DNA of 64,000 nucleotides from Longimicrobiales bacterium (GTDB lineage Bacteria; Gemmatimonadota; Gemmatimonadetes; Longimicrobiales; Gaopeijiaceae). The translations under genes and the position numbers were made by a program. The stretch lies in assembly GCA_963664435.2 (NCBI GenBank), contig CAXXKM010000003.1:1216001-1280000 (forward strand). The letters are read 5' to 3'. Below, in pieces: positions 36,369 to 52,562 of this stretch (position 1 is its first letter; every line of letters begins with the position of its first letter). The notes beneath the pieces are model-generated. The model was not told where the DNA came from. It did no database searches and saw only the letters and a list, made by a program, of their open reading frames with translations.

Positions 36369-39300
36369 TCACCTCCTCCACGCGTAACCGTCCGGAATGC
36401 CCCGGCTGAACAGCGTTTCCAACCTCTGCCCGGCGGCCTGTCCCACCGCATCCGCCGCCGCCTGGGTCGCCGGAGCCGGATCCCGCAGGAATCCGCGCAC
36501 TTCTCCGGTTTGCGCGTCGCGAAGGATGGCCATCGGCTGGTCCGTGGTTTCGTCCAGCACGGCTGAGCCTCCGGGGCCGGATAGCGTGATGCTTGCCAGT
36601 TTGTCCCCCCAGCCCGGTCGGACAGGCAAGGCGAATACAAAGCTGGTCTCCTCACCCTCGGCGTCTCCGATGTGCGGCATATCGAAGGCAAACGAGAAGA
36701 CGGGTGTGCCATCAACGGTCGCACCCTCGATGGTATACTCCCCCCCGGCGACTGGAAGAGAGGGCACGGCGTCAACGACGAACGCGGGATCGAGGTACGG
36801 AACACCATCCTGATCCCGTCCACCCCAGATCAGAAGCGAACGAACGGGCACCGCCTCTGCGGCCATGGCCGCAGAGGCGGTGCCGCCGTTCGCAAGACGG
36901 TGGCTAAGTGCCTTGTTGAAAAAGAAATCGCTGGTCCAGTAGATCCCATGTGTGCAGTAGGACATGACGTCGGCGGCGTGCGGCGTCACCAACGCGTTCC
37001 GTCCGAAGTCGTACCCCCAGGCCCCGATGCTTCCGCCAAAATGCGGGAACCAGGGGTCGACCGTGCGGGGATTGCCACACGGTGCGTGCTTGAGCGAGAG
37101 GTTGTGCCCCAATTCATGGGCGATCGTGGAAGGGTTGCGCGTCGACATGCTCGCCCAGCCAGCGAGGCGGGCGACTCCCGTCGCCGCTGGGCTAGACGAG
37201 AATTCGTTACTATAGTTGGGTTGCCATACGCCCATCCAGTATCCCGAACCGCCCTCCATCACGCGCATCGCGTCTACCTGAGCCAATCTCCTGGAGATGT
37301 CCTGGGTCGATGTGATGACGGGTTGGCGCGCCGAGACAGCGAGTTCCGCTATCGGAAGTAGCATCCGCACGTCGCGGAGCAACTCGTGCCCGTCCGGATC
37401 CGCCGCCATTGCGGAAACGGACTCCACAACGGACGAGTCGGGCTCGGTTTCCCAGAGAAACGGGATAAGGGTCAGGCGCAAGGGCTGCACGGACCGGACG
37501 TCGATTGCCATGCGTCCTTCTTCGGGAATCCGCTTCGTGACTCCAAGCGCGGAGTCCAGCGTCCCTTCAGGATCGACTTCAATCACCATCTCCAAGCCTG
37601 GCACGATGACCCAGTCGGGAATCTCGGCGTTCGCCGACAGCGCAAGATCTCCTTCCATGACCTCTGAGGGGATGAGCCGGGTCGTCGCCGCGATATCGAC
37701 TGAGTGCCGTTCGGCCCCATCGACGAAGAAGGTGGCGCGGACATCGGGCATCGTCGCCGTGCCGGCCTGGGCCGCGGTCACGAAAACGCGCAGCAGCGCC
37801 GGCTTTCCGGCCAGGAGCGGCACGGGATCGTCCCATGACTGCACGCTCTGCGTCAGATACGCCGCCGCCCCACCGTCGCAACGTACCAGGTGGCGGTCGG
37901 CAATGCCCCGGAACCATGCGGCCCAAGCGGCATCCGGCGGCCAGCAGAGCCCGGTGCCTCCCGCCATGAGACGTTCGAGTCCTCCAATGGCCAGAATCTC
38001 GGAAGGCATCGGCCCGGCGAGGTCGGAGTTGTCCGCCAGAATCAGTTGATCTAGCAGGGTGAGGCTGCCGAATTCTGGAGGAACGGGACCGTTCAGCGCG
38101 TTGGATCGCAGGTCGAGATGCTCCAGGTTGGTGGCGCGCCCGAGTTCAGCGGGCAGAGCCCCGGAGAGTGCATTGTTGCCCAGATCCAGCGTGACCAGGC
38201 TGCCGAGACGGCCCAACTCACTCGGAATCGATCCAGAGAGTTGATTGTCGGAGAGCTCCAGCGCCCAAAGGTCGCCAGATCGCCCCAAGTCAGAAGGGAT
38301 CGATCCGGAGATCTCGTTGCCGGAGAGCCGGAGCTCCTGGAGACCGGCGAGGCCGCCGAGTGCCGAAGGAATGCTCCCGCTCAGTCGATTGCGGGAAAAG
38401 TCCACGGCGGACAGGCGGTCTAGCGTGCCAAGCTCGGGCGGAATGCGGCCCGTCAGTTGGTTATCAGCGAGCCGGATGGATATGAGCGCTGAGATCCTGC
38501 CGAGTTCCGAAGGAATGCTCCCGCTCAGTTGGTTGCCGACGAGTTCGAGCCGCTCGAGACGACTCAGATTGCCCAATGCGGCCGGAATGGAGCCTGAGAG
38601 GAAGTTCCATTTGAGGTCCAGCCTGGCGAGATCGGCGAGGTTGGCCAGTTCTTCTGGGATTTCGCCTGTGAGTTCATTATCCCTAAGACTGAGCTGCCGC
38701 AAAGGGACCAAGTCACCCAGCTCCGGCGGGATCGTCCCCGATATCCGGTTTCTGAAGAGGTCAAGTCCTCTCAACTCCGACAACCCGCCAAGCTCCGAAG
38801 GAATGCCGCCGTAGAGCTGGTTCCCCGCAAGGTCAAGCCACTCAAGATGGTCCAATTCACCCAACTCGATTGGGATCCGGCCGGACAACCCGTTGAACGG
38901 TAGCCGCAGTACGACGACCCGGCCGGCGGCATCGGTCTCCACACCGTGCCATTCGGCCAACGGTGCATCGGTGAGCCACCCCGTATTCTCGTTCCAGTTT
39001 CGGCCATCCGCATTCCGGTACAACAGCTCGAGAATGTCACGGTTCGTAAGAGGGGGACACGGCACTCCTGTCCCGGTGTGGCGCGGGATGCCGTTCAGCC
39101 AATCTTGGAAGCCGGCATCGTCCGCCACGCACAGGGACGTGCCCCGGTAGTCGAGCTCCTCCAGTTGCACCTCGGTCAGCGACAGAGGCAACCGGCCGGA
39201 CAAGGCGTTGTCCCCGATCCGCAGCTCCGTGAGGCTGGCCAGCAGGCCAAGCGCCTCCGGAACGTGGCCCGACAACGCGTTGCCGCTCAGATCGAGACCC

Positions 39301-41297
39301 GAGACCCGACCGATCGAATCCGTCCGCACGCCATGCCACCGGTCCAGGTTCTCGTCCTCCAGCCAGCCATCGGACCGCGTCCAGCCGGATCCGTTCGTGG
39401 CCTCGTGGAGGCTCTCCAGCGCGTCGGCATCGATCTCGTCGCAGAATGCGATATCCACCGCCCACTCGATGTTCCCGCGAGCCTCCACCTGCCGCGCCCA
39501 CTCCCTGAACTCGTCCGTCGCGGGCAGGCATACCCCCTCGGTTCGCCGGCAACCTATCGTCTGAAGTCTGTTCAGACCGATAAAACTCAACGGGAGGGAG
39601 CCCGTCAGGAGGTTGTCGGTCAAAGTAAGTCCTTCCAATGCAGCGAGGCTTCCGAGTTCCGTCGGCACCGCGCCCGTCAGTTCATTGTTGTTCAAATTCA
39701 GATTGCGCAGATGGGTCAGTTTCCCCAGCTCCGGCGGGATCGGACCTGTCAGTGCGTTACTCGACAGTGACAGGCTGGTCAGATTGGCAAGACCGCCCAG
39801 CTCCGGTGGGATCGGGCCCGTCAGACCGTTGTCATAGAGCCATAACCACCACAATCCCTCGATGTTGGCCAACTCTGGCGGAATCCGGCCTGTGAGGTTG
39901 TTCCCGTCAAGCAGCAGCCACCGCAGGTTGGCAAGGTTGGCCAGCTCCGGCGGGATCGGGCCCGCCAGATCGTTTTGCCGCAAGTTCAGATCGCGAAGTC
40001 CGGCAAGTCCGCCTAGCGATGGCGGAATCGTACCCGTCAGATTGTTCCATCCCAAATCAAGGTCTGACAACCGCACCAGATCGGCCAACTCCGGTGGGAT
40101 TGGGCCCGTCAGCTCGTTGTCGCGCAAACTAAGCACGCGCAGGTTGGAGAGGTCCCCGAGCTCTTGGGGAATTGTGCCGGTCAGGACGTTCCCTCGGAGG
40201 GAAAGTGTTTCGAGATTCGCAATTCCGCCGAACTCCGGCGGAATAACACCGAACAGTCGGTTCAAACCGAGGTTGAGATGCCGCAAGTTCGCAAGATTCC
40301 CCAGCTCCGAAGGAATGGTGCCCGTGACGGCGTTGATCCGGAGGCTGAGCACCTCCAGGGACGTGAGGCGCCCGAGTTCGGGCGGAATCGGACCCAGGAG
40401 GCCATGAGGCACTTGTTCCCGTCCTTCCCACACGCCGTCTAGACGAATGCCCACCACCCGCCCCGACGCGTCGGTCTCCACCCCGTACCACTCCCCCAAC
40501 GGCGCGTCGGTCAGCCAGTTGGTGTTGTCGATCCAATTCGGACCGTCGGTGGCCTCGTAGAGGGCTACCAGGGCGGTTCGGTCGGTATTCTCCACCGTTG
40601 TGACCTCGGCAGTGCCCGAGTATTCGCTCGCCGTCGCCGTGATCGTAGCCGTTCCTTCGTCCACTCCGGTCACCAACCCCGAGTCGTCCACCCGGGCCAC
40701 GAGCGTGTCGCTCGAAGACCAAACGAATTCCGTCACCGCCGCCACGCCGTGACCGTTCGCGTCGGTCGCCTCGGCCACCAGACGCACCGTGTCCCCGAAC
40801 GCCACCAGGGTGTCCGCCGCGGGCGACAAAACGACTGCGATCACCACCTGGGCCACGGTCACTGCCGCCGTGCCGGAGCCCGAGCCCGCCGTCGCGGTGA
40901 TCGTTGCGGTCCCGTTCCCCGCTGACGTCGCCAGCCCCGTCGCGTCCACCGACGCGACCGAAGCGTTGCTGCTCGCCCACGCGACGGCGGTTCCCGCCAT
41001 CACCTGCCCGTTCTGGTCGCGTACCTCGGCCGTGAACCGGGCCGTCTCTGCGAGGGCGCTCAGTGCGGCAGAACCTGGGCTGACCGCCACCGTGGTGGCC
41101 ACGGGAGTCGGTGGAGGAGCAGGCTCGACGGCGCCATCGCCGCAGGACAGGACCAGCACCGCGGTCGCGGCGATGGCCGAGATCGCGAAGCGCGCGCTCA
41201 AGCGTCCCGGTCGACCATCGCCCCGCCTCCGGCGAATGTGCCAACGGTGCATCCCTGCCCGACCATCTTCGGAAAGCCCTCTCGATTGCATGTCCAT
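36369..41297 (-). CDS. Giant surface lipoprotein: 2x Big_2 + two plant-receptor-like LRR blocks + C-terminal zinc metalloprotease (M66-like)
   Basis: VLSC lipobox, Big_2 repeats, many 24-aa LxxLxLxxNxLxGxIPxELG repeats with LY.AT.G..W....WL caps, AHELGHNLSLKHAPC (HExxHxxxxxH). Confidence 0.88.
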   Translation of the reverse strand: MDMQSRGLSEDGRAGMHRWHIRRRRGDGRPGRLSARFAISAIAATAVLVLSCGDGAVEPAPPPTPVATTVAVSPGSAALSALAETARFTAEVRDQNGQVMAGTAVAWASSNASVASVDATGLATSAGNGTATITATAGSGSGTAAVTVAQVVIAVVLSPAADTLVAFGDTVRLVAEATDANGHGVAAVTEFVWSSSDTLVARVDDSGLVTGVDEGTATITATASEYSGTAEVTTVENTDRTALVALYEATDGPNWIDNTNWLTDAPLGEWYGVETDASGRVVGIRLDGVWEGREQVPHGLLGPIPPELGRLTSLEVLSLRINAVTGTIPSELGNLANLRHLNLGLNRLFGVIPPEFGGIANLETLSLRGNVLTGTIPQELGDLSNLRVLSLRDNELTGPIPPELADLVRLSDLDLGWNNLTGTIPPSLGGLAGLRDLNLRQNDLAGPIPPELANLANLRWLLLDGNNLTGRIPPELANIEGLWWLWLYDNGLTGPIPPELGGLANLTSLSLSSNALTGPIPPELGKLTHLRNLNLNNNELTGAVPTELGSLAALEGLTLTDNLLTGSLPLSFIGLNRLQTIGCRRTEGVCLPATDEFREWARQVEARGNIEWAVDIAFCDEIDADALESLHEATNGSGWTRSDGWLEDENLDRWHGVRTDSIGRVSGLDLSGNALSGHVPEALGLLASLTELRIGDNALSGRLPLSLTEVQLEELDYRGTSLCVADDAGFQDWLNGIPRHTGTGVPCPPLTNRDILELLYRNADGRNWNENTGWLTDAPLAEWHGVETDAAGRVVVLRLPFNGLSGRIPIELGELDHLEWLDLAGNQLYGGIPSELGGLSELRGLDLFRNRISGTIPPELGDLVPLRQLSLRDNELTGEIPEELANLADLARLDLKWNFLSGSIPAALGNLSRLERLELVGNQLSGSIPSELGRISALISIRLADNQLTGRIPPELGTLDRLSAVDFSRNRLSGSIPSALGGLAGLQELRLSGNEISGSIPSDLGRSGDLWALELSDNQLSGSIPSELGRLGSLVTLDLGNNALSGALPAELGRATNLEHLDLRSNALNGPVPPEFGSLTLLDQLILADNSDLAGPMPSEILAIGGLERLMAGGTGLCWPPDAAWAAWFRGIADRHLVRCDGGAAAYLTQSVQSWDDPVPLLAGKPALLRVFVTAAQAGTATMPDVRATFFVDGAERHSVDIAATTRLIPSEVMEGDLALSANAEIPDWVIVPGLEMVIEVDPEGTLDSALGVTKRIPEEGRMAIDVRSVQPLRLTLIPFLWETEPDSSVVESVSAMAADPDGHELLRDVRMLLPIAELAVSARQPVITSTQDISRRLAQVDAMRVMEGGSGYWMGVWQPNYSNEFSSSPAATGVARLAGWASMSTRNPSTIAHELGHNLSLKHAPCGNPRTVDPWFPHFGGSIGAWGYDFGRNALVTPHAADVMSYCTHGIYWTSDFFFNKALSHRLANGGTASAAMAAEAVPVRSLLIWGGRDQDGVPYLDPAFVVDAVPSLPVAGGEYTIEGATVDGTPVFSFAFDMPHIGDAEGEETSFVFALPVRPGWGDKLASITLSGPGGSAVLDETTDQPMAILRDAQTGEVRGFLRDPAPATQAAADAVGQAAGQRLETLFSRGIPDGYAWRR

Positions 41298-41360
41298 CTC
41301 TCCTCGCCCTGCCCGCTTCGGTGTTCGGGCTTCCTGTCGCATCGGCCGCGCGCCGGACGT

Positions 41361-42048: not shown

Positions 42049-42416
42049 ATAGGCGATTATCCGCGAGTTGACTCGTCTGCCAGCGACCCTTCACCGTTCG
42101 GGGATGGAGACGCTGGAACACTCGTTCAACGTGCCGATTAGGGCGCTCCTCGGGCGGGATGGAGAACCCGCGTCGCGCCTCCACTGGCGACGGGTGGCCG
42201 AACCCGAATCCGGCAACCCGTTGCCCCGTCGAGATGTGGGAAATGGCCTATTTCCCACTCGCTTGCGCGGCTTGCCGACACCGTGTTCGGGTTGATGTGC
42301 ATGGAGATCGTGACCAAACAGTTGGAGACCCCGCCGAGGAGCGTCCTCCGGTGTCGATTCGTTCCCCGTCCCAGCGGCTCCGCGAGCCGAGAAGGCTCGG
42401 AAGAGGGGGACCTGCG

Positions 42417-43352
42417 ATGATCGCCCACCTGAAGGGACGGGAACAGGCGCTGGAACCCTTGGGCCTGACCGGCCGCCGGGCCGAATGGATCGCGCTGGCG
42501 AGCCTGCACGGCGGCGTGTTCACCCGCGCGCAGCTTTCGGACTGGCTCGGGGCCAGCCGCTTCAAGGTGCTCCGGCTCATTCAGGCCCTGACGGAGCGAA
42601 GGCTGGTGACCGAGGAGACGGTCGGAGGTCTCAAGGTCTGCCGGGTCTGCGCGCGCGGCATCTACCGGGCGCTCGCTGCCGAGGACATCCGCCACCGAAG
42701 GATTACCTCGACCGAGGTGGTCATTCGCCGCCTGCTCTCTTTCGACTACGTGATCGAGCATCCGGACCTGCCCTGGCTCCCGACCGAGTCGGAGAAGGTG
42801 GGTGCGTGCGAGGCGCTCGGCATCGACCGCTCGCTCATGCCCGTCCGGGTCTATCGGGGCGCGGTCGGCGGTGCGCGGCGCTACTTCCCGCGCGGGATGC
42901 CCGTGGCGCTGGACTCTTGCCGCGCCGTGTTCGTCCACGCCGATCCCGGCTACGACACCTCGACCGCGCTCCACTCGTGGCGGGACCGGCACCGGAGGCT
43001 CTGGGAGGCGCTTAGAGAGGACGGCTTGTCGGTCGAGGCCATCGGGGTCGCAGGCGGCCGGAGGGAACTCGTTCGAGCGCGGACGATCCTCGGGAACTGG
43101 ACCAATGCGGACACGGCCCAACGTTCCGTGCATCCGCCTGGGACCGTCGCCGCGGCCCGGCGCGAGGCCGCACGGGTCGAGAACGCCATCCGGGGCATGG
43201 ACGACGCGACGGTCGAGGAACTGGGCGGTCTCAACGGCTGCCTTCGCCGCCTCGTCGAGATGAGGGAACTGCTCCGTTCGGCCCGTCCCGAAGGCACGAT
43301 CGACGGCCATTCGGTATGGCGGTCGAGCCGTCTTTCCGGAGTCCGAATTTGA
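42417..43352 (+). CDS. Element backbone protein; N-terminal wHTH-like region, candidate non-canonical relaxase/replication protein
   Basis: GAGGGGG RBS, GVFTRAQLSDWL..VLRLIQALTERRLV wHTH pattern, directly upstream of the T4CP once IS110 is removed. Function inferred. Confidence 0.6.
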   Translation: MIAHLKGREQALEPLGLTGRRAEWIALASLHGGVFTRAQLSDWLGASRFKVLRLIQALTERRLVTEETVGGLKVCRVCARGIYRALAAEDIRHRRITSTEVVIRRLLSFDYVIEHPDLPWLPTESEKVGACEALGIDRSLMPVRVYRGAVGGARRYFPRGMPVALDSCRAVFVHADPGYDTSTALHSWRDRHRRLWEALREDGLSVEAIGVAGGRRELVRARTILGNWTNADTAQRSVHPPGTVAAARREAARVENAIRGMDDATVEELGGLNGCLRRLVEMRELLRSARPEGTIDGHSVWRSSRLSGVRI

Positions 43353-43639
43353 GTGCCGTTCGGGGGAGCCCGTTGCCGATCCGGAGGTGTGAAATCGACA
43401 TCGGGGTGCTTGTGCACGGAAATGCCGCTGTGTTGTGCGGAACGTGGGTTCCGCAAGTCTCCGGACGGCTTGGGGTTGGGCCACGGCCCGCGGATCGCCG
43501 GTGCCGATCCGGGTCTCCGGGCCGTGGACGGGAGCGACCCGGCCCTTCGGGATGCCTGGTGCGGCATCGGGGCGGTTCGGCATGTGCAGGCCCATGCCGC
43601 CCTCCCCGCCGGGTCGCTTGTCTCTTCCATTCTTGGAGA

Positions 43640-43866
43640 TCCCTGCTTGATTTGCAGGTCCGGGTCACGGGGATGGCCCGGTGTGCTGGATGCCCGCAGA
43701 GGCGAGCGGAGCGAGCCGGAGCGGGCATCCAGCACAGACGGTGGTCGGGCCGTCGGGTCGCTGGCCGCAAGGGCCGTACGGGAGTTTGGTCGCCACCGTC
43801 TTTCCCACGTCCTGAATGGATACTTGAGCATCGAGGCTCGCACGACAAGCACAGGAGAAAGGGAAA
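43640..43866 (+). ncRNA. Predicted IS110 bridge RNA (5' hairpins, target-binding loop, donor-binding loop)
   Basis: Target guides CGGGTCGCT 43754-43762 and GTACGGGAG 43776-43784. Donor guides ATGGATACT 43816-43824 and GACAAG 43844-43849. Each pair sits in an internal loop closed by stems. Transcript ends approximate. Confidence 0.88.
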
Positions 43867-43870
43867 GCAC

Positions 43871-44872
43871 ATGAGCACCAGCCGTCGCACCGTCGGGATC
43901 GACATCTCCAAGGACTGGCTCGACGCCTTCGCGGCGCCCGAGGGGAGAGCGTCCCGGTTCTCGAACGACAGGGCCGGCTTCCGGAAACTGATCGCTTGGA
44001 TCGGCTCCGGGATCGACCGGATCGCGTACGAACCCTCCGGAGCCTTCCACCGCGACCTCGAGGACACCCTCCTGAAGGCCGGACTCCCCATGTATGCGAT
44101 CAACCCCTTCCAAGTCCGGTCCTTCGCCCGGTCCCTCGGCCAGCGAGCCAAGACCGATGCCGTGGACGCCCGGATGCTGGCCATCATGGCGTCGGCCATC
44201 GAAGACCTACGCCCGGCGCAGGCGAAGTCCGAGGGGCAGCGCGACCTTGCCGAGCTCCAGCAGATCCGCGACGCGCTGCGCAAGGACCGGACCGCCACCT
44301 CCAACCGCGGCAGGCACTTGCGCACTCCCGTGGGCAAGCGGGTCACCAGGCAGAGGCTGAGGCAGATCGAGCGCCAGCTGAAGCTCATCGACGCAGAGAT
44401 CCGGCAACGGGTGGAGGAGGAGAAGGCGCTGGAGCGCCGGGCCGAGATCCTGACCTCGATCCCGGGCATCTCGGACATCACCGCCGCGGGACTGATCGTC
44501 CACTTGCCGGAGCTCGGCACCCTCACCGGCCCCCGCGCCGCCAGCCTCGCCGGACTGGCCCCGGTCACCCGGGAGTCCGGACACTGGAAGGGACGCAGCT
44601 TCATCCAGGGCGGCAGGCGCCGGGTGCGCCAGTTGCTGTACATGCCCGCAGTGGCTGCGGTCCAGCACAATCCCGACCTCGGGCGCAAGTACGAAGCGCT
44701 CGTGGCTCGGGGCAAGCCGCCCAAGGTCGCCCTGACGGCCGTGATGCGGAAGCTCCTCATCCTCGCCAACGCCCTGGTGCAGCAGGACCGCACTTGGACG
44801 GCGCACCCGCCGCGGGAATACTCCTGCCCGGCCTTCCCGACGCCCAGCCCGGCGGGGAGCGTTCACGGATGA
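43871..44872 (+). CDS. IS110-family DEDD recombinase/transposase (333 aa)
   Basis: VGIDISK (D), AYEPSG (E), AKTDAVDA (D,D), SIPGI, GLAP..RESG (Ser), VRQLLYMPA, ALTAVMRKL. Confidence 0.96.
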   Translation: MSTSRRTVGIDISKDWLDAFAAPEGRASRFSNDRAGFRKLIAWIGSGIDRIAYEPSGAFHRDLEDTLLKAGLPMYAINPFQVRSFARSLGQRAKTDAVDARMLAIMASAIEDLRPAQAKSEGQRDLAELQQIRDALRKDRTATSNRGRHLRTPVGKRVTRQRLRQIERQLKLIDAEIRQRVEEEKALERRAEILTSIPGISDITAAGLIVHLPELGTLTGPRAASLAGLAPVTRESGHWKGRSFIQGGRRRVRQLLYMPAVAAVQHNPDLGRKYEALVARGKPPKVALTAVMRKLLILANALVQQDRTWTAHPPREYSCPAFPTPSPAGSVHG

Positions 44873-44958
44873 TCGAGCCGGGCAAGAACGGGCACCGCAA
44901 CGGAAGCATCGCGAGGGGCGCTGCGAGACACGTCGCTCCAAGAAAATCGGGCATCCGC

Positions 44959-44964
44959 TTGACA
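44959..44964 (+). promoter_or_regulatory. -35 box (TTGACA) at the IS110 right end, forming a junction promoter on circularisation
   Basis: In the circle: TTGACA-17 nt (TGGATACTTGTCTCTTC)-CATTCT (43628-43633), upstream of the bridge RNA. Confidence 0.75.
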
Positions 44965-45004
44965 TGGATACTCCCGTACCAACGATCCCTCCGGGAAGGG
45001 GGCT

Positions 45005-47032
45005 TTGCCGATGAGGAACTCGACGGTCGCCGTCATCGGTGCCGCCATCGGAACGGCGGGCGCGCACGCGCTCGAACTGCCGTTCCCTGCCATCGGCGAC
45101 AACCCCTATCTCGACCTGATCGCCCACAACGATCCGGGCATCCACGCCGCCATCCGCATCTGGTACTACGCCTCGCCCGGCGTCGCGGTCATCCTCGCGG
45201 GCGCGCTCGTCCTCTCGGTCTGGCGGGTCTGGTTGCAGCCCCTCTTCAGGTTCCGGCGCAAGGGCAAGTTGCCCAGGTGGCCCACCTCGCCGAACGACGA
45301 CGCACCCTCTCTGGTAATCGGCGAGACGCACCACCCGACCGTGCCGCGCGAGAGCGAGCGGCCCTCGTGGCTCGTCGTCCCCGAAAAAGGGCTCTACACG
45401 GGCGTGCTCGTCGTCGGGGCCGTCGGCACCGGCAAGACCACGGCCTGCATGTACCCGTTCGCCAGGCAGCTTCTCTCCTGGCGCGCGGATGATCACCGCA
45501 AGCGCGCGGGCGCGCTTGTGCTGGAAGTCAAAGGAGACTTCTGCCATCAGGTTCGGAGCATCCTTGGCGAGGCCAGACGAGAGGAGGACTACCTCGAAAT
45601 CGGGCTCGGCGGCTCGTGGCAGTGGAACCCGCTGGACGATCCGCTCCTCGACTCCTACTCGGCGGCCTACGGCGTCGCGTCGCTCATCAACCAACTCTTC
45701 GGCAAGAGTAGGGAACCGTTCTGGCAACAGGCGTACACGAACCTGGTGCGGTGGATCATCGAGGTCCACCGCATCCTGCCGGGCGGCTGGGTCACGCTCC
45801 GGGACATCTACCGCTGCACCGTGGACGCGGAACTCCTGGGGCGGAGGATCGGCGAGGCCCGGAGGCTTGCGGACCGGCTCCGTCCGAAGCGCGCCGTCAT
45901 CTCGCACGAGGACATGATCGCCCACCCGCAGGCGCTGGAGGAGTGGGCGTGGGAGCGCGTGCCCGGCACCGGCAGCGTGGGGTGCCGTCTCGACCCGGAA
46001 CTGGGATCGCGGCTCGACGAACTTGGCGTCGCCTTCGAAACCGAAGAGGCCGACGGAGGCGCGGGCCGGGAGATCGCCGAACAGGTCGAGGCCATCGAGC
46101 GATGGTACTCCCATGACTGGATGGCGCTGGACGCAAAGCTCCGCACCTCGATCGTCGAGGGCATCAGCGTCTTCCTCTCGCTCTTCGACCTGCCGGACGT
46201 GGCCGGGGTGTTCTGCCCGCCGCCACCCACCGAGACTCCGTCCGCCGAGAGCAACGAAACCAATAGCAACAGCCATCCCGTGCCGGGACTTCGCCGGAGG
46301 CTGCCGCCGCTCGCGCAGCTGATCGACGAAGGCAAGGTCCTCGCCCTGAACATGCCCGCCGGAGCGAACCCGGCGCTCGCACGCGCCATCGGCGTGCTGC
46401 TCAAGAATGCCTGGATGCAGGCGCTGCTCCGGCGTCCGGCCGAGGCCGCCCGCCGTCCCGATCGCTACATGCGGCCCGCCGTGTTCATCTGCGATGAGTA
46501 CCAAGCGTTTGCGACCGTCGGACAGGACGATCCGTCCGGCGACGAGAAGGCGTTCGCGCTCACGCGGCAGTGCCGCTGCATCCCGATCGTCGCCACGCAG
46601 TCGATCTCGTCGCTCCGCTCCGTGCTTCCCTCAGGCGAGGCGTGGCGCACGCTCGTCCAGACGCTCCGCACCCGGATCTTCCTGTCGCTGTCCGACGAGG
46701 CGTCGGCCCGGATCGCGTCCGAGATGTGCGGCTCCGTCATGAAGACGCGGGCCTCACACACGTTCACCGAGACCACGGGCAGGCCCGAGTTCTCGCTCCT
46801 CTCCGGTCGCGCCGGAGGGGGACGGGGCACCATCGGCGCGAGCAAGTCGTTCCGGCAGCAGAGGGAGCCGGTGTTCACGCCGCGCGAGTTCGGGCTGCTC
46901 GCCAACTACCAGGCGATCTGCCTCCCCTACGATGGCGTGAAATCGCTTCCGGCCCGCCGCGTCTACCTGAAGCCCCACTACCTGCCGAGGGAGACGGGCT
47001 ACTGGCGGCTTCGCGAGAAGGGGCGGATATGA
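45005..47032 (+). CDS. Type IV coupling protein (VirD4/TraG/TraD-like ATPase)
   Basis: N-terminal TM helices, Walker A GAVGTGKT, LEVKGD, WNPL, Walker B FICDEYQ, VATQS. Confidence 0.88.
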   Translation: MPMRNSTVAVIGAAIGTAGAHALELPFPAIGDNPYLDLIAHNDPGIHAAIRIWYYASPGVAVILAGALVLSVWRVWLQPLFRFRRKGKLPRWPTSPNDDAPSLVIGETHHPTVPRESERPSWLVVPEKGLYTGVLVVGAVGTGKTTACMYPFARQLLSWRADDHRKRAGALVLEVKGDFCHQVRSILGEARREEDYLEIGLGGSWQWNPLDDPLLDSYSAAYGVASLINQLFGKSREPFWQQAYTNLVRWIIEVHRILPGGWVTLRDIYRCTVDAELLGRRIGEARRLADRLRPKRAVISHEDMIAHPQALEEWAWERVPGTGSVGCRLDPELGSRLDELGVAFETEEADGGAGREIAEQVEAIERWYSHDWMALDAKLRTSIVEGISVFLSLFDLPDVAGVFCPPPPTETPSAESNETNSNSHPVPGLRRRLPPLAQLIDEGKVLALNMPAGANPALARAIGVLLKNAWMQALLRRPAEAARRPDRYMRPAVFICDEYQAFATVGQDDPSGDEKAFALTRQCRCIPIVATQSISSLRSVLPSGEAWRTLVQTLRTRIFLSLSDEASARIASEMCGSVMKTRASHTFTETTGRPEFSLLSGRAGGGRGTIGASKSFRQQREPVFTPREFGLLANYQAICLPYDGVKSLPARRVYLKPHYLPRETGYWRLREKGRI

Positions 47033-50968: not shown

Positions 50969-51310
50969 ATGCCTGTCGGACGCAGGACTGCATCGTCCCC
51001 GCCAGCCGCAGTCGACGGGGCCCTGAGACGGCTGGGGCGCAACATCCGCATCGCTCGCTTGCGCCGGCAGCTGCGCATCCAGGACCTGGCCGAGCGCATG
51101 GGGGTTTCGCGGTTCACGGTCGCCGACCTGGAGAAGGGCAAACCGGGCACGTCGGCAAGCGCCTACTTCGGTGCGCTCTGGGCCCTCGGCCTGCTCGGCG
51201 ACGCGGAGGCCCTCGCCGATCCGGATCACGACGAGGAAGGCCGAGTCCTGGAGAGTGCCCGCGCCCCCCGGCGCGCCGCCCGTCCCGGACGCCTCGACAA
51301 TGACTTCTGA
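50969..51310 (+). CDS. XRE-family HTH antitoxin (HipB-like)
   Basis: LGRNIRIARLRRQL..DLAERMGVSRFTVADLEKG. Overlaps the hipA start. Confidence 0.85.
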   Translation: MPVGRRTASSPPAAVDGALRRLGRNIRIARLRRQLRIQDLAERMGVSRFTVADLEKGKPGTSASAYFGALWALGLLGDAEALADPDHDEEGRVLESARAPRRAARPGRLDNDF

Positions 51311-52562
51311 GCGCGCGTGCTACGTCTTCGTCGTTCTGCCGGGGAAGACGGCGTTCACCGTTGCAGGCAGGTTCCGCGTCTCGGAAACCCGCTCGGGATC
51401 TCTGCTGGGCGAATTCGTCTATGGCCGGAGCTATCTCGGTCGCCCTGATGCCGTCGAACTCGATCCCGTGGAGCTGCGGCTCGCCGAGCGCGTGTACCGG
51501 ACGGGGCGCATGGGAGGTTTCTTCGGCGTCATTCGGGACTCCATGCCGGACCACTGGGGACGCCTGCTCATCGAGAGGCGCACCGGCAGGACGATCCTGG
51601 AGGAATTCGACTACTTGATGGCGGGGCCGGACGACCGCGCGGGCGCGCTCGGGTTCGGCAGGCAGCTGGAGCCTCCCAGGCCCCGGCGGCGCTTCAACGC
51701 GGTGGTCGACCTGTCGCGGCTTCAGGCCGCCGCACACGCCCTCCTGGCCGACAAGTTCGAAGTGACCGGGGCCGTGGCCGACCGCGCCCGCGAGCTTCTT
51801 CTCGCAGGCACATCGATGGGCGGAGCGCGCCCCAAGGCCGTGGTCGAATCCGAGGGCGCGCTGTGGATGGCCAAGTTCGGCCAGGAAACGGAGCGCTGGA
51901 ACCTGCCCCGGGTCGAGCATGGCCTGCTCCGGCTCGCGCGGCGATGCGGGCTGGACGCGGTCGAGAGCCGGGTCGAACGTGTCGGCAATCGCGACGCGCT
52001 GCTCCTGCGCCGCTTCGACCGGAAGTGGGCCGGCGACGGCTATCTGCGCCATCGCATGGCGAGCGCCCTCACCCTGCTGCGTGCCGACGACTCGCCGACC
52101 GGCCGCGGGCGTTGGTCCTACCTCGCGCTCGCGGACGAAGTGAGGCGGGCCAGCGCGGCGCCCCGGGAGGACCTGCGCGAGCTGTTTGGCCGGATGTGCT
52201 TCAACGCCGCGGTCTCCAACCTGGACGATCACCCGCGCAACCACGCGATGCTGGCCCGGGACCGCAGCTGGCGCCTGAGCCCGGCCTACGATCTGGAGCC
52301 GATGCCGGTGGTGGCGGTCGAGCGGCGTGATCTGGCCATGGTCTGCGGGCCGCTGGGCCGCTGGGCCAACAGGTCCAACCTGCTCGGAGCTGCCGGGCGA
52401 TTTCTGCTGGGGCGCGATGAGGCCCGGGACATCTTCAATCGAGTCACGGAGACGATTCGGGGATCCTGGCGCGAAACCATGCGTCGGGCCGGGGTGAGCG
52501 AACGAGACCGCGAACGCATTCGGGACGCGTTTCTCTACGACGGCCTGTTTCTGGATGCGTGA
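51300..52562 (+). CDS. hipA: HipA-family kinase toxin
   Basis: DSMPDHWG, TSMGGARPK, AKF, RRFDR, NLDDHPRNH, LSPAYDL. Confidence 0.92.
   Translation: MTSERACYVFVVLPGKTAFTVAGRFRVSETRSGSLLGEFVYGRSYLGRPDAVELDPVELRLAERVYRTGRMGGFFGVIRDSMPDHWGRLLIERRTGRTILEEFDYLMAGPDDRAGALGFGRQLEPPRPRRRFNAVVDLSRLQAAAHALLADKFEVTGAVADRARELLLAGTSMGGARPKAVVESEGALWMAKFGQETERWNLPRVEHGLLRLARRCGLDAVESRVERVGNRDALLLRRFDRKWAGDGYLRHRMASALTLLRADDSPTGRGRWSYLALADEVRRASAAPREDLRELFGRMCFNAAVSNLDDHPRNHAMLARDRSWRLSPAYDLEPMPVVAVERRDLAMVCGPLGRWANRSNLLGAAGRFLLGRDEARDIFNRVTETIRGSWRETMRRAGVSERDRERIRDAFLYDGLFLDA

Follow-up and report, generated by a model that had tools for sequence, protein, structure and literature searches.

How does an insertion sequence (IS) find its target, and can the answer be read from the DNA of a single genome? 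This question is raised by a locus in a 64,000-nucleotide stretch of DNA from a Longimicrobiales bacterium (hereafter the window, with positions counted from its first letter), where a 1352-bp IS110-group element, core excluded, occupies positions 43619-44970 and is bordered by the dinucleotide CT on both sides. The host belongs to the Gemmatimonadota (Longimicrobiales) and is uncultured; its genome was assembled into 3 contigs totalling 4.5 Mb with a GC content of 68%. Bridge recombinases were described in 2024 and have since been predicted for thousands of elements. We consider it very likely that the window element is a recently active IS110-group IS that moves by bridge-RNA-guided recombination, in which the RNA, the circle and the catalysis are modelled on those of IS621 from Escherichia coli, the founding bridge recombinase (Durrant et al. 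2024, PMC11208160; Hiraizumi et al. 2024, PMC11208158). The guides, the target, the donor and the empty site are all readable from this one genome, together with evidence of recent movement.

The genome carries three 100% identical copies of the IS, copy A in the window and copies B and C on contig C2, at C2:901458-902809 (+) and C2:851559-852910 (-), respectively. Two more copies, D and E, are 87-88% identical to the IS, and a further remnant is located on contig C1. The gene of copy D is open, that of copy E is split over two frames near residue 102-104, and, judged from these frames, copy E is probably a pseudogene. The flanks of the five copies are listed in Table 1. Copies C and B lie ~50 kb apart on one contig in inverted arrangement, and from this arrangement an inversion of the segment between them could occur. 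Two 210-bp stretches, C3:1789034-1789244 (L007) and C3:1134934-1135144 (L008), are 82% identical to IS positions 898-1107, and were absent from the protein-search listing of IS copies.

A genome search for the uninterrupted 16-mer target, made up of the left target half, the CT core and the right target half (Table 1), gave one exact copy, at C2:901365, versus 0.014 expected by chance. Two genome sites differed from the 16-mer by one mismatch, one of which lies inside the window on the minus strand, in the other arm of the intergenic repeat that the IS interrupts (Table 1). The exact site belongs to a paralogue of the window locus. The left flank of the window element aligns to C2 with an end at 901372 (85/86 identical), and the right flank aligns from 901373 (194/200), whereby the two alignments overlap by exactly the 2-nt CT. 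The boundaries of the IS are therefore fixed independently, by an uninterrupted site on C2 and by flank alignments that share one CT. At the window and C2 loci the filled and empty sites are reciprocal, the empty ones having a single CT, and the identical copies are found in different arms of the repeat and in opposite orientation. Thus, the same element entered the two paralogous loci independently, and these reciprocal loci, as far as their sequences go, argue for recent transposition.

The gene of the element encodes a protein that matches the Pfam families DEDD_Tnp_IS110 (PF01548, 7.9e-22) and Transposase_20 (PF02371, 3.5e-18), and that scores 209.5 bits against the NCBIfam equivalog NF033542, 'IS110 family RNA-guided transposase', for which the cut-off is 140. 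Matches in the PDB were found to IS621 (1.3e-31, residues 7-304) and to ISCro4 (9t56, 3.5e-30, residues 6-304). The protein thereby combines an N-terminal DEDD RuvC-like domain with a C-terminal Tnp domain containing a catalytic serine. Its residues D11, E54, D96, D99 and S236-G237 align with D11, E60, D102, D105 and S241-G242 of IS621 (the PDB chain numbering of IS621 is offset by +2 in this alignment), and D11, E60, D102, D105, S241 and also G242 are the catalytic residues named for IS621 (PMC11208158). Both the reading frame and the catalytic residues are intact, judging from the sequence.

The 252-nt left end of the element (43619-43870) is non-coding, and contains four short motifs that can be matched with the ends and flanks. 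The left flank plus core, CGGGTCGCT at 43610-43618, is repeated at 43754-43762 (left target guide, LTG, 9/9), and GTACGGGAG at 43776-43784 is the reverse complement of the core plus right flank at 44971-44979 (right target guide, RTG, 9/9). Likewise, ATGGATACT at 43816-43824 equals the right end plus core at 44964-44972 (left donor guide, LDG, 9/9), and GACAAG at 43844-43849 is the reverse complement of the core plus left end at 43617-43622 (right donor guide, RDG, 6/6). When the left end was shuffled 200,000 times with preservation of dinucleotides, the four motifs were found in 505, 108, 12 and 15,410 of the shuffles, and any two together in 50; the product of the four single-motif frequencies is ~6e-12.

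Folding of 43619-43871 gives a minimum free energy of -124.5 kcal/mol (z = -4.4), a stability that none of 200 shuffled sequences attained. In this fold the target guides flank a GGCC-GCAAG-GGCC hairpin in the internal loop of a target-binding stem-loop (TBL), and the donor guides flank a GAGC/GCTC hairpin in the internal loop of a donor-binding stem-loop (DBL). An RNAalifold consensus of 35 distinct left ends gave the same architecture. Compensatory changes were present at 11 of the 69 consensus pairs, nine of them in the long 5' hairpin, which is shorter in relatives with 72% identity. There are also candidates for the handshake contacts, in agreement with the covariation published for such positions (PMC11208158): the C that follows the RDG (43850) could pair with left-target position 7, which is a G in all 54 flanks described below, and the U that follows the RTG (43785) could pair with left-donor position 7, an A. 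A search of Rfam 15 with 43300-45300 (E <= 1) returned only a plant miRNA hairpin, which was discarded as spurious, with 21 bits versus a gathering score of 268. Of note, CAGGA and GGGAAA (43852-43866), which form the 3' sides of the donor-loop stems, cover a purine-rich stretch 5-19 nt before the ATG of the recombinase gene, and folding of the RNA on a read-through transcript could mask the ribosome-binding site of this gene.

If the left end encodes guides, then these should differ between relatives together with the DNA next to the element. A scan of genome contigs yielded 74 loci encoding relatives at 74-99% identity, nearly all in metagenome-assembled genomes of Longimicrobiales/Gemmatimonadota. 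Together with five sequences from the host genome, 79 sequences were examined; parsing of the target loop succeeded in 63 of them, and the others were truncated or had a variant hairpin. Both flanks were available for 57 of the 63, giving 54 distinct combinations of guides and flanks, i.e. distinct insertions. Over 7 left-flank positions, the LTG matched on average at 6.02 (n = 54), with 24 insertions at 7/7 and 19 at 6/7, whereas after permutation the mean was 4.75 (sd 0.16), and the observed value was reached by none of 10,000 permutations. For the RTG and 6 right-flank positions, the mean was 3.39 (n = 54) compared to 2.20 (sd 0.14) after permutation, and again 0 of 10,000 permutations reached it. 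Only three of the 54 combinations match perfectly on both sides, and the window copy is among them.

The co-variation is also apparent from the guide classes, GGGTCG, GGCTGG with several variants of the two most distal bases, and CGGCTGG, which shift together with their flanks. Three genomes of more distant relatives (G064, 71-72% identity; G221, 78%; G199, 83-85%) contributed another 11 loci, with the new guide classes TTTCAGG and GCTGGCTG and flanks that match them, and within G064 a CAT/CAC difference on the right side is tracked by the flanks at 3/3 and 2/3 distinct sites. The target loops comprise 26 distinct guide sets, while the guide positions of the donor loop and the ends of the element are nearly invariant; ATGGATA terminates the element in the family loci, with ATGGATG in L071 as single exception. 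Over 35 sequences, the TBL loops vary strongly and their stems hardly at all. A variable target loop next to a conserved donor loop has been reported for IS110 RNAs (Durrant et al. 2024, PMC11208160). One related genome harbours at least 11 copies, with a 99% identical recombinase, at different sites, and in a sample of the phylum 60 of 301 genomes contain a match at E <= 1e-30, a tally that includes the unpublished genomes G097, G057 and G157, each with a distant match only. In most relatives of the GGCTGG subfamily (e.g. L039 and L044), the LTG and LDG both end in CA, whereas the core in the DNA is CT and the RTG and RDG keep AG, so that the left guides of these relatives leave the second core position without a pairing partner.

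The sequence-only reading of this locus, all strings and coordinates of which are present in 43400-45200, had proposed a two-loop architecture of the IS621 type with a CT core. This is borne out by the fold, the RNAalifold consensus, the recombinase family and the single CT in the empty site. It had also suggested folding the left end, which reproduced both enclosing stems and both inner hairpins with the z-score given above, and comparing the copies, which turned out to share their ends and to have flanks that co-vary with the loops in the 54 distinct insertions. Taken together, the protein family, the anatomy, the guide layout, the CT core, the combination of a variable target loop and a constant donor loop, and the guide/flank co-variation support an IS621-type system.

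A circular intermediate would join the right and left ends of the element, and across this right end-CT-left end junction the hexamer TTGACA (44959-44964) is followed, after a spacer of 17 nt, by CATTCT, with 9 of 12 consensus matches. This split arrangement, a -35-like hexamer in the right end and a -10-like one in the left, is kept in all 59 copies for which both ends are available, with a spacer of 16-18 nt and 8-10 matches out of 12. Where the hexamers are TTGTGA or TTGCGA and CATAAT, as in one subfamily, each of the two is shifted by 2 nt, and the spacer is still 17 nt. No sigma-70-like promoter or intrinsic terminator was predicted in the integrated element. Promoter reconstitution at the circle junction has been reported for IS621 and relatives (PMC11208160), and the split hexamers seen here fit such a reconstitution.

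The following mechanism can be proposed, for which the anatomy, the guide matches, the copy identity, the empty sites, the co-variation and the promoter geometry are directly seen in the DNA. Excision would join the right and left ends around one CT and thereby place the right-end -35 at 17 nt from the left-end -10-like hexamer, from which a non-coding RNA of ~225 nt may be transcribed out of the left end. The first internal loop of this RNA would pair with the target, and the second with the element's own joined ends, ATGGATA-CT-TGTC. A tetramer of the DEDD/Ser recombinase would then exchange strands at the CT core and insert the element.

Several observations weigh against this mechanism or narrow it. 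The RTG matches at 6/6 in only 4 of the 54 insertions, and in many relatives the match on the right side extends over only ~3-5 nt and then fades. Copy C, although identical to the window copy, sits in a site where 3 of 6 scored right-flank positions match, or 4 of 7 when all seven are counted. Moreover, the kinship among copies inflates the permutation statistics, which overstates their independence. The guides of copy D match its own site at 3/7 and 2/6 positions, this copy being a member of the GGCTGG-guide subfamily in a degenerate A/E-type site. There is hardly any variation in the TBL and DBL stems, even in relatives with 72% identity, and covariation therefore neither supports nor refutes them, and the above-mentioned Rfam scan matched no bridge-RNA family. 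Finally, the contigs of four public runs list no back-joined joint for the circle junction. The contigs from RNA libraries (X15 and X17) are 90-95% alike to the window, and with this likeness they derive from relatives; those of X15 leave 43583-43887 of the left end uncovered, those of X17 touch parts of it, and X19 gave no matches, so that the public-run contigs neither show nor exclude expression of the left-end RNA. A joint in run X1 that skips 1354 nt was considered as an excision event in the population, and was rejected, since the contig has 6 differences in 230 nt, equal to the divergence of the C2 paralogue (194/200), and is best read as the paralogous empty site.

From the fading match on the right, the effective specificity on this side looks shorter than 7 nt, and the 16-bp match is thus a property of the site of the window copy and no proof that 16 bp are read. 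The earlier claim of an intact recombinase with a fully matched 16-bp target accordingly holds for the reading frame and the catalytic residues, and for the target only in the window copy, since the sites of the other two identical copies match at 15/16 and 12/16 positions. A poorly sampled lineage had been suspected as well; the lineage is uncultured, but it is well represented by metagenome-assembled genomes, as the 74 related loci indicate.

Three other explanations were weighed against bridge-RNA-guided movement. The element might have the anatomy of a bridge-RNA system in a lineage that is now inert, with inherited guide matches and copies that spread by duplication of the surrounding DNA, which we consider improbable. 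The window and C2 loci are indeed paralogous, with their two-gene module, described below, 88-94% identical at the protein level, yet the identical copies occupy different arms in opposite orientation while the other's site is empty, which points to separate insertions after the duplication, and the 3-6% divergence of their host loci contrasts with the 100% identity of copies A, B and C over 1352 bp. The frameshift in copy E, the remnant on C1 and the fact that no circle or RNA was seen in the contigs of the public runs speak for this reading; against it stand the intact frame and catalytic residues of the window recombinase, and the related genome with at least 11 copies at different sites. 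That the guide matches are a product of chance, or of low complexity at the high GC content of the genome, can be dismissed: even with 68% GC, and with the 6-mer GACAAG alone occurring in 7.7% of the shuffles, the joint expectation is ~6e-12, and the same layout with different guides and matching flanks recurs in dozens of independent insertions.

The third explanation, that the left-end hairpins act as single-stranded subterminal DNA guides, as in IS200/IS605 elements, is very improbable. It draws on the fact that sequence alone cannot separate RNA from DNA pairing, and on a 2026 preprint that reports excision of IS621 mainly as a single-stranded circle (10.64898/2026.08.31.748434). However, the element has no Y1 transposase, the promoter-like hexamers at the junction, with their conserved spacing, point into the left end, and the similarity of the protein is to IS621, which has been demonstrated, by biochemical and structural work, to bind RNA and to recombine under RNA guidance (PMC11208160, PMC11208158).

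Within bridge-RNA-guided movement, guides might also be shared. Co-resident variants have identical donor ends and an invariant donor loop, which makes it conceivable that their bridge RNAs work in trans as a shared guide pool, so that copies are placed by the target loop of another copy. Two cases are suggestive: at the site of copy D its own guides match 5/13 positions and a co-resident guide set 8/13, and the flanks of L044 match the guides of L038, from the same related genome, at 13/13 versus 9/13 for its own, while L038 matches its own site at 2/7 and 3/6. As a general rule trans-guiding was rejected, since a co-resident set was better than the own set in 10 of 40 loci versus ~7.3 expected from the sets of other genomes, which is no clear excess, and the copy D and L044 cases are also explained by gene conversion of the loop in an element already inserted. 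We therefore regard guide sharing as a rather unlikely possibility; if it occurs, then together with the paired-arm repeat as landing pad it would form a natural modular guide-sharing network.

The window element resembles IS621 in several respects. Both have a DEDD RuvC-like domain and a Tnp domain with catalytic serine, and the alignment spans nearly the whole window recombinase. In both, the RNA region, a predicted one in the window element, is located in a long left end, in the order 5' stem-loop, target-binding loop and donor-binding loop; the LTG and LDG have the sense of the top strand, and the RTG and RDG that of its complement, with the CT core present in all four guides. The putative junction promoter of the window element is split as in IS621, its -35 half lying in the right end and its -10 half in the left, and both elements insert into a palindromic repeat. 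Going by the title of a 2003 paper by Choi et al., IS621 reportedly transposes into repetitive extragenic palindromic (REP) sequences. The left end of the window element is longer (252 nt, with a predicted RNA of ~225 nt and three 5' hairpins, versus 177 nt and one 5' stem-loop in IS621), and its RTG can pair over 7 nt beyond the core, natively 2 nt in IS621 (PMC11208160). The 7-bp RTG of the extended IS621 counts the core, and amounts to 5 nt beyond it, and some IS110 orthologues naturally have longer RTGs (PMC11208160). The fully matched target is 16 bp for the window copy compared to 11 bp natively for IS621. All these differences (longer left end, longer RTG, other host phylum) are of degree, and the current picture of the IS110 mechanism is unchanged by the window element.

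ISCro4 (PDB 9t56) belongs to the same protein family as the window recombinase, and its RNA logic is presumed to be alike. The bridge recombinases ISCro4 and IS622 have reportedly been used for human genome rearrangement. In ISPpu10 and ISPpu9 of Pseudomonas putida the target likewise lies in a multi-copy intergenic stem-loop, here the closing stem of a ~27-copy repeat. ISPpu9 is said to insert into structured REP-like intergenic repeats, and orphan copies of its small-RNA gene ssr9 reportedly occur elsewhere in the genome. The window genome differs in this respect, as a search with a left-end profile for orphan bridge-RNA genes gave five matches, all five inside IS copies and none elsewhere in the genome. 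ISPpu10 targets palindromic repeats, and a 'dual-match' claim holds that the repeat structure contributes to recognition (10.64898/2026.03.19.712850). With the IS1111 group and its seekRNAs the window element shares a DEDD recombinase and, on the proposed mechanism, RNA-guided targeting. However, IS1111 elements contain the RNA in a long right end and have subterminal inverted repeats of 7-17 bp (PMC11208160), whereas the right end is only 98 nt here and the structured region with the guides is in the left end. The window element is therefore not a member of the IS1111 group. By eye, short subterminal inverted repeats, GAC/GTC and GAG/CTC, were seen near the ends, at positions that are inconsistent between subfamilies. 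A long non-coding left end with the RNA and a short right end is what characterizes the IS110 group (PMC11208160), and in its sequence the window element shows every sequence-level IS110-group feature set out by Durrant et al. 2024. A literature search on IS110 combined with Gemmatimonadota names brought up no description of this IS family among the top 15 of 433 papers listed or, judged by title, among 7 papers with both terms; the supplements of the 2024 paper may list it.

As an orthologue whose right target guide is naturally long, giving up to 16 bp of specified target, the element could be entered into genome-engineering orthologue screens, to which it would add an uncultured lineage of Gemmatimonadota. 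The family alignment amounts to dozens of natural guide/target pairs for the study of mismatch tolerance, with tight matching on the left and matching that fades after ~3-5 nt on the right.

The IS targets a structured palindromic intergenic repeat ~130-160 nt long, namely its 12-bp closing stem, which encloses two inner hairpins. The arms GGGAGCGACCCG and CGGGTCGCTCCC are reverse complements, and the target is therefore present on both strands, ~70 nt apart. The preferred targets are the two arms of this repeat. A profile built from three copies gave 27 matches in the genome (nhmmer). Intact copies were found at L086 (C1:1455509-1455671), L087 and L088, and an intact copy folds at -96.8 kcal/mol (z = -3.6). 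In two repeat copies both arms show a compensatory change, from GGGAGC/GCTCCC to GGTAGC/GCTACC. An Rfam search with six repeat copies gave no match. The repeat often stands directly before a GGGAAGG resembling a ribosome-binding site and a gene start.

Table 1. Positions of the element, its parts and neighbouring features in the window, and flanks of the five genomic copies
Feature	Position	Strand	Details
Structured intergenic repeat split by the IS	43499-45003 (43499-43618 + 44971-45003)	+	Left arm, inner hairpins, right arm, stretch before next gene
Second target site, empty	43526-43541	-	15/16 match; opposite arm of same repeat; C2 homologue filled by copy B
Left target half (LT), 7 nt	43610-43616	+	CGGGTCG; identical to loop nt 43754-43760; flanks all three identical copies
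Core CT, left copy	43617-43618	+	CT at both junctions, once in empty site C2:901372-901373
IS110-group IS, 1352 bp without core	43619-44970	+	Three 100% identical copies, two at 87-88%, one remnant
-10-like hexamer, putative circle-junction promoter	43628-43633	+	CATTCT; 17 nt from right-end TTGACA across junction
5' hairpin region, predicted RNA	43642-43736	+	Hairpins 43642-43658 and 43660-43681; long hairpin with 16-bp stem 43682-43736
Target-binding stem-loop (TBL), predicted	43737-43800	+	LTG 43754-43762, inner hairpin 43763-43775, RTG 43776-43784, candidate handshake U 43785
Donor-binding stem-loop (DBL), predicted	43801-43866	+	LDG 43816-43824, inner hairpin 43826-43839, RDG 43844-43849, candidate handshake C 43850
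Recombinase gene, 333 aa	43871-44872	+	Pfam, NCBIfam and PDB matches
Right end, 98 nt	44873-44970	+	-35 TTGACA 44959-44964; left donor half ATGGATA 44964-44970
Core CT, right copy	44971-44972	+	Sequence and empty-site comparison
Right target half (RT), 7 nt	44973-44979	+	CCCGTAC; reverse complement of 43776-43782
Downstream gene, type IV coupling-protein-like ATPase (TraG/VirD4-like)	45005-47032	+	Pfam TraG-D_C 1.2e-7, TrwB_AAD_bind 2.7e-7
Flanks of copy A			Left CGGGTCG, core CT, right CCCGTAC
Flanks of copy B			Left CGGGTCG, core CT, right CCCGTCC
Flanks of copy C			Left CGGGTCG, core CT, right CCCCGTC
Flanks of copy D			Left ATCGTCG, core CT, right CTCAGGC
Flanks of copy E			Left GGGGTCG, core CT, right CCCAGCC

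In the window, the repeat is located between an unannotated gene of 397 aa (orf397, 42159-43352) and the gene for the TraG/VirD4-like ATPase, with the IS 38 bp before the ATG at 45011. The 397-aa protein matched no Pfam or NCBIfam family, and no other conjugation genes were recognised among the scanned neighbours of the module. The two-gene module of orf397 and the coupling-protein-like ATPase has six paralogues on three contigs, in which each ATPase gene is preceded by an orf397 homologue. Further upstream in the window, a 1656-aa open reading frame on the minus strand (36369-41342) consists mostly of leucine-rich repeats, with matches to NCBIfam leucine-rich-repeat families below cut-off only, and downstream a HipA-like kinase gene is present at 51171-52562 (HipA_C, 2.1e-43).

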